Part shown: piece after piece, positions 1,319 to 4,112 of the stretch
Layout: each line of letters begins with the position of its first letter
Numbering within the stretch: the first letter of the stretch is position 1
Notes under the pieces: model-generated
What the model was told of the DNA's origin: nothing
Database searches by the model: none
The model's input: the letters and a program-made list of their open reading frames with translations, nothing else
Position numbers and translations under genes: made by a program
From: Escherichia coli
Lineage (GTDB): Bacteria > Pseudomonadota > Gammaproteobacteria > Enterobacterales > Enterobacteriaceae
Assembly: GCF_036507355.1 (NCBI RefSeq)
Contig: NZ_AP027884.1
Reading direction: 5' to 3' (one strand)
Length of the DNA stretch: 4,112 nucleotides

Positions 1319-1426
1319 TGAAAACGAAAAAACCACCCGGCAAGGTGGTTTTTCGAAGGTTCATTAAACCGGCAAGTTTATGAACCGTGGTAACAGGGTG
1401 TACAAGACCGCTGCCACCAAAATCGT
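1319..1426 (-). ncRNA. RNAI: RNA I antisense copy-number control RNA (about 108 nt)
   Basis: Complementary to the 5' region of RNA II. The 5' end is placed by alignment to the pMB1 RNA I start (ACAGUAUUUGG, here ACGAUUUUGG). The 3' stem-loop ACCACC-loop-GGTGG plus U-tract lies at 1325..1350. Confidence 0.8.
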
Positions 1427-2314: not shown

Positions 2315-2338
2315 CTTTTTCGCTTATCCGCGTACGTG

Positions 2339-2413
2339 GTAATACGCCGGTATTACATCTTATTTCTTTATTTTCATGTAATTACAGGTGGTTGTAATAC
2401 GTTGCGTATTACA
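2339..2413. promoter_or_regulatory. Cluster of three palindromic operator-like sites sharing a GTAATAC/TGTAAT half-site
   Basis: GTAATAC-gccg-GTATTAC (2339..2356); TGTAATTACA (2377..2386); TGTAATACG-ttg-CGTATTACA (2393..2413). All arms are perfect. Confidence 0.5.
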
Positions 2414-2580
2414 TAAATAAACGGGGACTTCAGTTTTTACCTTTTAATTCATGCAATTGCGATGAAAATCGCGGTTGCGTATGGTGTATGACCATTTAAG
2501 GGATAATGTAACCTGACTTTTAAAGAATGAATCTATCTTTGGTAGCGCATGAGATCGATAAAAAGCGTTCCACATCAGGC

Positions 2581-2600
2581 GGTTCATGGATACATGAACC
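2581..2600. promoter_or_regulatory. Perfect palindrome GGTTCATG-gata-CATGAACC
   Basis: 8-bp perfect inverted arms with 4-bp spacer, immediately upstream of the phased direct-repeat array. Confidence 0.45.
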
Positions 2601-2603
2601 GGA

Positions 2604-2684
2604 AAGGACAAAAATAAGACAATTGTAGGACATTTTTTGCGTTTTACTCTTATTTTTGGACTATTATGAGACAAATGTAAGACA
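2604..2684 (+). repeat. Iteron/operator-like array: two sets of three 7-bp direct repeats (consensus T-R-R-GACA) at exact 11-bp spacing, separated by a 30-bp gap
   Basis: AAGGACA 2604, TAAGACA 2615, TAGGACA 2626; TTGGACT 2656, TGAGACA 2667, TAAGACA 2678. Spacing of about one helical turn; the array ends 14 bp before the ATG at 2698. Confidence 0.6.
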
Positions 2685-2697
2685 TTATGGGCGGTAT

Positions 2698-3066
2698 ATG
2701 GCGAATTTTAACCCTGGTCCAAGAACAGCCATTGCAGCTGTCAGGGATTCCAAGAACGATATAGAAACCTGGAAGAAAAATGGTATCCGTAGGGAAGAGA
2801 TTGTGACTGTACTGAATAAACGTTACGGCCTGAATATCTCACTGGTTGCGTTTGATAAGGCTCTTTACAGATTGAGAAAAAGTACAGATGAACCGTCTCT
2901 TGCTGATGTGGATTCTGTGTCTGCTGCAGAAACGAATTTCTCTGAAGCCAGTGGGCCTGAAAATGGTTTTTTTCTGTCCGGGAATGACTTCATGCGAGCA
3001 GAAGAAGAATCTCAAAGAATGGTTGAGTCATTCAGAGATAGCCTTGGCAGGAAGAAAGGATTCTGA
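2698..3066 (+). CDS. Hypothetical protein, 122 aa from ATG 2698 (ORF track extends to a TTG at 2656); basic N-terminal half, acidic C-terminal tail; possible DNA-binding protein
   Basis: Open frame of 120+ codons directly downstream of the phased repeats; N-terminal segment NGIRREEIVTVLNKRYGLNISLVAFDKALYRLRK is HTH-like by eye; no family recognised with confidence. Confidence 0.5.
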   Translation: MANFNPGPRTAIAAVRDSKNDIETWKKNGIRREEIVTVLNKRYGLNISLVAFDKALYRLRKSTDEPSLADVDSVSAAETNFSEASGPENGFFLSGNDFMRAEEESQRMVESFRDSLGRKKGF

Positions 3067-3272
3067 TTTTGAATTCTAAGTAGTGAAATAGTGGATCCTC
3101 TACTCGAAATTGTCGGATACCTGCAATTACCTACCGTGCCTTACGGCTTGGTCAATGCCTCACGGCCACGCAATAAATTGCGTCCCCGTTCACCGTTTTC
3201 GGATAAGAAGAACATCGGAAACAGGACTTACCCCGGCTGAATGGCGTGAATTTCCGCGCTATGCACTTGCGC

Positions 3273-3284
3273 GCATACTCATGC
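3273..3284. promoter_or_regulatory. Candidate ArgR-box-like palindrome (GCAT-actc-ATGC) in the Xer accessory region
   Basis: Palindrome centred about 109 bp upstream of the XerC arm, where cer-type sites carry an ArgR site; sequence only loosely resembles the ARG box consensus. Confidence 0.3.
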
Positions 3285-3386
3285 ATGCCGTAAAAACAGA
3301 GCCTGCGCGTTTCTGGCGGGTTTTCGGGTGGTTTGTTGCCTGTTTTACCGGTTTCCCGTCAGAAACGCCCTCAGCGCCTCTCAGGC

Positions 3387-3414
3387 GGTGCACGCAACGG
3401 ATGTTATGGTAAAT
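3387..3414 (+). other. Xer site-specific recombination site (cer/psi-like multimer resolution site): XerC arm GGTGCACGCAA, 6-bp central CGGATG, XerD arm TTATGGTAAAT
   Basis: XerD arm is identical to the cer XerD arm; XerC arm differs from psi (GGTGCGCGCAA) at one position; 11+6+11 layout. About 200 bp of potential accessory sequence lies upstream. Confidence 0.6.
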
Positions 3415-3503: not shown

Positions 3504-3526
3504 GGTGATGACTCCAACTTACTGAT
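3504..3526. repeat. IS1 terminal inverted repeat (IRR)
   Basis: GGTGATGACTCCAACTTACTGAT, the canonical IS1 terminus. Confidence 0.85.
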
Positions 3527-3914
3527 AGTGTTTTATGTTCAGATAATGCCCGATGACTTTGTCATGCAGCTCCACCGATTTTGAAAACGACAGTGACTTC
3601 CGTCCCAGCCTTGCCAGATGTTGCCTCAGATTCAGGTTATGCCGCTCAATGCGCTGCGTATATCGCTTGCTGATAACGTGCAGTTCTCCCTTCAGGCGTG
3701 ATTCATAAAGCGGCCAGCCATCCGTCATCCATACCACGACCTCAAAGTCCGACAGCAGGCTCAGAAGACGCTCCAGTGTGGCCAGAGTGCGTTCACCGAA
3801 TACGTGCGCCACAACCGTCCTCCGAATCCTGTCATACGCGTAAAACAACCAGCGCTGGCGTGATTTAGCGCCGACGTAACCCCGCTGTTCGTCCATTTCA
3901 GCGCAGACAATCAC
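3519..3914 (-). CDS. insB: IS1 InsB (shown from first in-frame ATG; in IS1 the transposase is the InsAB' fusion made by -1 frameshift at the A6C motif, here complement of about 3959..3967)
   Basis: ORF-track protein [28 protein letters not shown]...HYLNIKHYQ matches IS1 InsB; the TTAAAAAAC slippery motif is present on the minus strand just upstream. Confidence 0.9.
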
Positions 3915-3940
3915 ATCACCGCCCGGTTGTATGCGCTAGG

Positions 3941-4112
3941 TTACCGACTGCGGCCTGAGTTTTTTAAGTGACGTAAAACCGTGTTGAGGCCAACGCCCAT
4001 AATGCGTGCACTGGCGCGACATCCGACGCCATTCATGGCCATATCAATGATTTTCTGGTGCGTACCGGGCTGAGAGGCGGTGTAAGTGAACTGTAGTTGC
4101 CATGTTTTACGG
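3941..4112 (-). CDS. insA: IS1 InsA, 3' portion (stop codon = complement of 3941..3943)
   Basis: The frame continues from the window start; 34 codons + 1 junction codon + 57 codons gives 91 aa plus stop, the InsA length. C-terminal sequence ...[16 protein letters not shown] is followed by TAA. Confidence 0.85.

Follow-up and report, generated by a model that had tools for sequence, protein, structure and literature searches.

The locus analysed here encodes a protein of 122 residues, directly downstream of phased direct repeats on a small plasmid, and raises three questions: to which family the protein belongs, which DNA it is likely to recognize, and what it might do for a plasmid of this kind. 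A first-pass annotation made from the letters and a list of open reading frames had left the protein unclassified, and the RefSeq annotation of the frame is a CDS for a "hypothetical protein". In this work, we followed up that annotation by family and profile searches, structure prediction and comparisons of homologous plasmid loci.

The plasmid and its transfer origin

The window, i.e., the whole stretch of DNA analysed (4,112 bp), is an entire circular plasmid of the ColE1 type, with end-to-end plasmid matches in E. coli NZ_CP080073.1 (99.6%) and pCE35-5 (97.5%); the main features of the locus are collected in Table 1. The plasmid carries no relaxase, coupling protein, accessory protein, stbB or stbC gene, and tblastn searches of the circularised window using two StbB and one StbC queries gave no match for stbB or stbC below E=2. 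On the 3' side of the stbA-like gene there is a cer-like region followed by an IS1 element, stbB being absent from its expected slot. The core of the cer-like region (3387-3414, with an upstream part at ~3190-3386) reads GGTGCACGCAA-CGGATG-TTATGGTAAAT, with a 6-bp central region, and we take it to be an Xer core comparable to that of ColE1 cer; presumably, it is a multimer-resolution site.

Table 1. Features of the stbA-like locus and its surroundings (window positions)
Feature	Position	Strand	Remarks
RNAI	1324-1425	-	ColE1-type replicon
GTAATAC/GTATTAC inverted repeats of the IncN-type oriT	2339-2356 and 2394-2412		by alignment
nic region	2459-2505	+	hairpin GCGATgaaaATCGC 2459-2472, GCGTATGGTGTAT 2477-2489, TAAGGGATA 2497-2505
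Conserved AAAAAGCGTT box and inverted repeat TTCATG-N4-CATGAA	2560-2598		box 2560-2569, inverted repeat 2583-2598; just 5' of the array
Repeat set 1	2606-2632	+	three RGACW cores, 11-bp spacing: GGACA 2606, AGACA 2617, GGACA 2628
Putative stbA promoter	2637-2667	+	inferred; -35 TTGCGT 2637-2642, -10 TATTAT 2662-2667, 19-bp spacer
Repeat set 2	2658-2684	+	three RGACW cores, 11-bp spacing: GGACT 2658, AGACA 2669, AGACA 2680
stbA-like gene	2698-3066	+	122 aa plus stop; ATG 2698, TGA 3064-3066
N-terminal HTH DNA-binding domain (predicted)	2698-2895	+	residues 1-66; predicted recognition helix 49-64
Acidic, Ser-rich linker, predicted disordered	2902-2991	+	residues 69-98; AF2 pLDDT <50
Conserved C-terminal tail FFLSxxDF...SFxxSxGxKKGF	2968-3063	+	residues 91-122; motif common to IncN StbAs

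Upstream of the gene, positions 2330-2604 align with the IncN oriT, the MOBF-type transfer origin itself occupying 2330-2512, and because this segment shares its elements, 2330-3066 may be regarded as one block composed of an IncN/R46-type oriT, the repeat array and stbA. The stretch TGTAATACGTTG(C/T)GTATTACA of the GTAATAC inverted-repeat region is common to the window and to L003, an IncN plasmid locus (NZ_LN824136.1), and these inverted repeats are probably sites for a relaxosome accessory protein encoded by a helper. The nic core displays 82-84% identity to the oriT cores of L003, of a second IncN locus (L004) and of R46, and the nick presumably falls where it does in GTCT/ATAGC, which we take to be the R388 nic sequence. 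The nic region is located 190-240 bp 5' of stbA in the IncN orientation, with no relaxase operon in the plasmid from which the gene could diverge. The AAAAAGCGTT box and the TTCATG-N4-CATGAA inverted repeat are kept in every aligned IncN-type locus, whatever its repeat class. R46-like oriTs in relaxase-less plasmids, termed "pOriT", have already been described in the literature.

Apart from this block, a contiguous segment at ~2060-2150 (TATACACTCCGCTAGCGC...GACTGG...GCTGCGCCCCGA) is what we take to be a ColE1/pBR322-type bom (nic) region, by its resemblance to the pBR322 bom sequence; with the IncN-type oriT, the plasmid may thus hold two distinct transfer origins ~400 bp apart. A split ColE1 bom, with its distal part at positions 1-159, was also considered and rejected, the segment being the left end of IS1. 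The IS1-family element is complete (768 bp), spans the circular junction (3504-4112 joined to 1-159) with its insA and insB frames on the minus strand, and has terminal inverted repeats matching at 21 of 30 positions; the plus-strand ORFs 3-194 and 166-306 are therefore spurious. Two further genes were observed in the plasmid. A 222-aa Wzz-like gene (GNVR domain, O-antigen chain-length-regulator type) occupies 370-1038 on the minus strand, within a stretch (370-1300) of 26-28% GC, against 44% for the plasmid as a whole, that looks like foreign cargo. A 49-aa ORF on the plus strand (2165-2314) resembles MazE/PemI-type antitoxins in their C-terminal part alone (NCBIfam E=0.007), carries the RefSeq label AbrB/MazE/SpoVT family in a related plasmid, is also kept in the Salmonella plasmid p467-3, and has no adjoining toxin gene.

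The reading frame and its family

The 122-codon frame was found as called, from ATG to TGA, and its conservation across homologous plasmids, the lack of which would have spoken against the first-pass annotation, was borne out: at 80% coverage or more, 177 of the 187 PLSDB plasmids that match carry the frame uninterrupted. We therefore regard it as a genuine gene and not as an accidental ORF. Homologs begin at the same N-terminus, with MANFN(P/L)GPRT... in the small-plasmid copies and MTSANLGPRT... in the IncN protein of L003, and the ATG at 2698 is therefore favoured over an upstream TTG at 2656. The copy in Salmonella p467-3 (L005) also has 122 codons and shares 73% amino-acid identity with the window protein, with a dN/dS of 0.48 between the two (significantly below 1; Fisher p=0.012), a value that indicates moderate constraint and no more. 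The gene is present in 61 of 5,426 complete E. coli genomes, and the 90%-identity UniRef cluster of the exact sequence contains 493 member sequences.

The view that no family could be assigned had to be abandoned. For this protein, a search of NCBIfam returned a single match, namely StbA_2 (NF041290, "plasmid stabilization protein StbA"; E=1.7e-9, residues 8-65), with a score of 38.3 bits; this is below the curated cutoff of 100, so the protein is no equivalog of R46 StbA, which scores 217.6 bits, and other operon-type StbAs range from 30 to 96. When the single sequence was used as query, the sole PDB match, at E=0.012, was to the R388 StbA DNA-binding domain (7pc1_A), and a profile of 13 homologs from which 7PC1 had been left out retrieved the same chain at E=2.8e-10. 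Further, precomputed Pfam records place PF28167 ("StbA-like") on proteins 83-98% identical to the window protein, and the UniRef name of the exact sequence is StbA. In three other searches, Pfam-A, in a release that does not contain PF28167, gave only noise, PHROGs gave one weak family of unknown function, and Foldseek gave nothing significant against the PDB; this last result and the low NCBIfam score speak against the assignment. Judged by these profile and database matches, the protein belongs to the StbA family, and this membership supports the earlier proposal of a centromere-binding, relaxosome-accessory or autoregulatory protein with a DNA-binding N-terminus. The family itself, its fold and the logic of its repeats are already known, and UniProt and Pfam label this protein.

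Gene order points in the same direction. In ~34-kb IncN conjugative plasmids, full-length homologs that share 38.8% and 31% identity with the window protein stand in the place of stbA, i.e., directly 5' of stbB, with the oriT between stbA and a divergent operon encoding the accessory protein, the coupling protein and a MOBF relaxase; R46 constitutes the annotated stbA-stbB-stbC reference. The distant homologs P0031 and P0032 display the same synteny as the IncN stbA loci.

Architecture of the protein

The protein shows the two-domain organization of StbA, with a conserved N-terminal domain and a variable, largely unstructured C-terminal part, according to both AF2 and the alignment. The N-terminal domain is an HTH domain homologous to StbA residues 1-75; AF2 models residues 11-60 with pLDDT >90 and places helices at 11-17, 19-27, 32-43 and 49-64, from which a three-helix, DNA-binding HTH is predicted. 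Structure prediction and profiles thus answer the question of fold that had been left between ribbon-helix-helix and HTH in favour of the latter. A PadR-type regulator, with a winged HTH, a beta-hairpin wing and a C-terminal dimerisation helix, was also considered, and these traits were not found.

The description of a basic N-terminal half followed by an acidic tail applies to both halves, and leaves out the extreme C-terminus. Residues 1-61 contain 13 K/R and 6 D/E (net +7, pI 10.4), and residues 62-122 contain 6 K/R and 13 D/E (net -7, pI 4.25) together with 10 of the 12 serines; the acidic charge resides in residues 71-110 (net -7), and over the final 12 residues the charge returns to basic (net +3). 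The part that is least conserved comprises residues 67-90 (dN 0.31). In the tail, AF2 places a low-confidence helix at 96-119, and the window sequence, FFLSGNDF...SFRDSLGRKKGF, carries a motif common to the IncN StbAs of L003, L004 and L010; over the last 35 residues the identity to the L003/L004 tail, the closest type, is 43%.

Between the two domains, the small-plasmid proteins differ from their relatives. A linker motif, (G/V)(L/M)HN(P/T/S), is present in one to three copies in 8 of 10 aligned family members outside small plasmids (compared using L003 5001-5441, L004 4977-5408, L006, i.e., R46, 20506-20922, and proteins P0032-P0038), and LHN[PTS] is missing from all three solo StbAs of small plasmids, including the window protein. 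The motif may mediate contact with some partner from the host or the plasmid, and in a linker without it some StbA activities may be lost.

The repeat array and its co-variation with the protein

Phased RGACW triplets, defined as RGACW cores separated by N6, occur in the plasmid only as sets 1 and 2, and in 0 of 200 shuffles; without the phasing, RGACW displays no overall enrichment. The triplets are separated by 30 bp, set 2 ends 13 bp before the ATG, and 2606-2646 shares 73% identity with 2658-2698 (blocks of 41 nt). The array thereby has the form known from the StbA family, namely direct repeats of 11-bp period, grouped in sets, in the promoter region of the family member's own gene. Regarding the proposal that the protein is the partner of the upstream repeats, it holds for the RGACW array at 2606-2684, and probably not for the GTAATAC inverted repeats (2339-2412), which belong to the IncN-type oriT.

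The Salmonella p467-3 locus is informative on this point: its repeat cores are kept while its spacers have diverged, and an indel of exactly 11 bp (p467-3 ~665-680 against window 2633-2657) shortens the gap between sets from 30 to 19 bp and preserves the helical phase. The same indel takes out TTGCGT, the putative -35 of the window. The distance between this putative -35 and the ATG equals that of TTGACT in L003, and TTGAC-type, -35-like hexamers occur within the inter-set gap in L003, L004, L008 and R46; a consensus scanner found no plus-strand promoter upstream of the gene.

We compared the arrays of seven stbA loci (Table 2). In all seven, the repeats lie on a single strand, that of stbA, with an 11-bp period; in six, the sets are parted by gaps of 19-32 bp, mostly of ~30 bp, L010 having a single set, and the gap before the last set measures 30-31 bp in L003, L004, L008 and R46.

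Table 2. Repeat arrays of stbA loci, and identities of StbB and of the StbA tail to those of L003
Locus	Repeat core	Repeats per set	StbB identity to L003	StbA tail identity to L003
Window	RGACW	3+3		
L005 (Salmonella p467-3)	RGACW	3+3		
L003 (IncN)	RGACW	2+3+4	reference	reference
L008 (P0031)	RGACW	2+3+4	48%	11%
L010 (P0032)	RGACW	3	67%	37%
L004 (IncN)	TACTAC	3+3+4	100%	97%
R46	TACA(A/T)C	5+2+6	58%	26%

The repeat core changes along with the recognition helix. The helix motif is (D/A)K(A/S)LYR in the five RGACW loci, DMALYR in L004 (TACTAC), DTSLYR in R46 (TACA(A/T)C) and RSYLYR in R388 (TTGCATCAT). The two IncN loci L003 and L004 have identical StbB proteins (100%) and StbA tails of 97% identity, with N-terminal domains of only 44% identity and different arrays; from the segments L003 4850-6167 and L004 4780-6134, this looks like a joint swap of the DNA-binding domain and the array (RGACW vs TACTAC). 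Because the layout is common to all stbA loci compared, the core follows the recognition helix, and p467-3 keeps both cores and phase, the array is a candidate binding site, and there is strong comparative evidence that it constitutes the cognate site of the StbA-like protein.

At the other end of the protein, with L003 as reference, the identity of the StbA tail drops along with that of StbB, and the identity of the N-terminal domain does not follow that order. This co-variation, which is correlative and comprises only five loci, fits StbB acting through StbA's C-terminal domain, an action on which the authors of the R388 work have speculated.

Proposed role of the module

With these comparisons as its basis, we consider it probable that the StbA-family protein binds the repeats cooperatively, represses its own promoter and forms a complex similar to stbS. 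If it behaves like R388 StbA, the protein would occupy the six RGACW repeats in a cooperative manner, on a single face of the DNA helix, and once bound it would occlude the putative promoter between and over the two sets, leading to autorepression. The resulting stbS-like nucleoprotein complex would be built beside the oriT, where it could serve two ends: to improve the distribution or retention of the small plasmid copies, and to gate the mobilisation that starts from the neighbouring oriT when relaxase, coupling protein and StbB are provided by an IncN helper, the conserved tail being the probable StbB contact. It is because the module is found alone on a relaxase-less, multicopy plasmid of the ColE1 type that we propose such a twofold role, combining retention with gated mobilisation.

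This physiological role is much less certain than the family, the binding and the autoregulation. There is little apparent reason for a multicopy ColE1 replicon that carries a cer-like site to require partition, which speaks against the retention part, and since the plasmid lacks stbB, stbC, the coupling protein, the accessory protein and the relaxase, one defining piece of an Stb system is missing.

A more specific reading, which we put forward tentatively and regard as unlikely, is that the solo StbA-repeat module is an interface to the helper: by carrying its own DNA-binding domain the plasmid would be freed from the DNA specificity of the helper's StbA, and the tail would plug into the helper's StbB. 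With a helper present, copies would be released to the transfer apparatus, and in its absence the complex would tether the ColE1 plasmid to the nucleoid. If true, this would represent the first NTPase-free partition protein on a high-copy, relaxase-less plasmid, as well as direct comparative evidence for the StbA tail as the StbB contact.

The distribution of the gene introduces the next alternative. When 2315-3066 was compared to other plasmids, 779 matched, only 62 of them at 80% coverage or more, most matches being confined to the first ~190 bp, i.e., the oriT core; ~700 small plasmids hold the oriT core without array and stbA. In AP027812.1 (L007, 1650-2300), stbA is decayed, with several indels and no start codon; in a widespread lineage of 12.6-13.9-kb plasmids (L012, NZ_CP019003.1, 1069-2696), an IS2 lies within set 2, directly 5' of an intact stbA; and protein P0023 is a fusion of IS1 InsA with StbA. 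As most plasmids with this oriT are without the gene and one lineage has a decayed copy, stbA looks dispensable. These observations, together with the absence of stbB, the shorter linker without LHN motifs and the relatively high dN/dS, would be expected of a relic, i.e., of stbA and its repeats having been captured along with an IncN-type oriT when part of an IncN leading region entered a ColE1 backbone by recombination, and being useless at present. Conversely, small backbones of many kinds (2.5-7 kb) carry the ORF intact at full length across 27% amino-acid divergence, its dN/dS is significantly below 1, the repeat cores are kept while spacers diverge, with an indel of exactly 11 bp that keeps the phase, and the C-terminal motif is conserved about as well as the DNA-binding domain when compared to the IncN proteins. 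On balance, we judge a useless relic to be quite improbable.

We give slightly less credit still to a pure transfer factor similar to TraK of RP4, in which the protein would act at the oriT as an architectural or relaxosome accessory component that the small plasmid has to provide itself if its oriT is to be processed by a helper's relaxase and coupling protein, with no role in vegetative stability. The gene adjoins an R46-like nic region, TraK_RP4 is described in the literature as a distant StbA homolog forming a nucleoprotein complex at oriT, the tail is of the type found in StbAs paired with the common IncN StbB, and the LHN motifs, possibly serving other StbA functions, are lost; all of this would suit such a factor. 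However, R388 transfer does not need StbA, conjugation increases 50-fold upon its deletion, and transfer is prevented by bound StbA where StbB is missing; moreover, the ~700 small plasmids that keep the oriT core without the gene indicate that it is not required for the persistence of the oriT. Co-residence with IncN helpers was not seen either: no strain name is common to the 61 E. coli genomes with the gene and the 48 with a transfer region of the L003 type, yet only ~0.5 shared genomes are expected by chance, which makes this result uninformative. Finally, a ribbon-helix-helix centromere-binding or accessory protein (ParG/omega/MobC-like) is extremely unlikely, for although small size, a basic N-terminus and direct repeats 5' of the gene recall, on general grounds, the partition adaptors of type Ib, the N-terminal domain is all-helical in AF2 and the family and profile searches returned no ribbon-helix-helix family.

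Comparison with known systems

The reading that we prefer, in which a StbA-family protein acts on its own array beside an oriT, is modelled on R388, whose StbA is a centromere-binding protein, autorepressor and conjugation regulator encoded next to oriT (Guynet 2011; Quebre 2022). Its site, stbDR/stbS, consists of 9-bp repeats with 2-bp spacers, five to a set, with both sets inside the stbA promoter; R388 StbA binds these repeats, represses its own promoter, needs the repeats for stabilisation, and forms a complex that retains plasmids within the nucleoid area, with the block on transfer described above. The window protein resembles R388 StbA (PDB 7PC1) in having an N-terminal HTH followed by a disordered C-terminal part, 11-bp-period sets in its own promoter, and an adjoining oriT of MOBF type. 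It differs in sequence, with ~26% identity over the DNA-binding domain, and in its site, the core being RGACW instead of TTGCATCAT and the arrangement 3+3 instead of 5+5; furthermore, R388 is a low-copy conjugative IncW plasmid, whereas the window is a multicopy ColE1-type plasmid without stbB, stbC and a relaxase operon. TraK of RP4, reported as a very distant StbA homolog that emerged only after seven PSI-BLAST iterations, builds a specialised nucleoprotein complex in the interval from nic to its own gene, and unlike the window it belongs to a MOBP system.

The closest operon-type relative is the StbA of L003, encoded by a ~34-kb IncN plasmid and annotated as a "hypothetical protein", with 38.8% full-length identity and 56% identity in the N-terminal domain. 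Both loci share the RGACW core, a set gap of ~30 bp, the oriT elements and a related C-terminal tail; unlike the window protein, the L003 protein has 147 aa and three LHN[PS] linker motifs, and its gene has nine repeats (2+3+4), is followed by stbB and faces a MOBF relaxase operon. StbA of the IncN plasmids R46/pKM101 (NF041290) belongs to the same family, occupies the same position beside oriT and has an array of 11-bp period (13 repeats), and is more distant from the window protein in its N-terminal domain (29% identity), its tail (23%) and its core, TACA(A/T)C.

The literature searched contained no paper in which StbA is linked to small ColE1-like plasmids, and the occurrence, on multicopy ColE1-type plasmids that lack a relaxase, of a shortened StbA standing alone with a 3+3 array appears to be undescribed. 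The basic mechanism of the StbA family as known is unchanged by these results, which provide a name and a testable mechanism for a RefSeq "hypothetical" protein of widespread small enterobacterial plasmids, and two leads for the StbA field, namely that the repeat core co-varies with the recognition helix and that the tail co-varies with StbB.

The nearest parallels in lifestyle are the pOriT plasmids with an R46-like oriT and the NikA-encoding pCERC7 group, which, like the window, are small plasmids with a helper-type oriT and helper-dependent transfer; the pCERC7 group also keeps, as the window does, a single DNA-binding protein adjacent to its oriT. In the pCERC7 group this protein is the nicking accessory protein NikA, whereas the window keeps StbA, a partition and conjugation-control factor, and some oriT-only hitch-hiker plasmids evidently retain StbA and its binding array beside the oriT of presumed IncN helpers.
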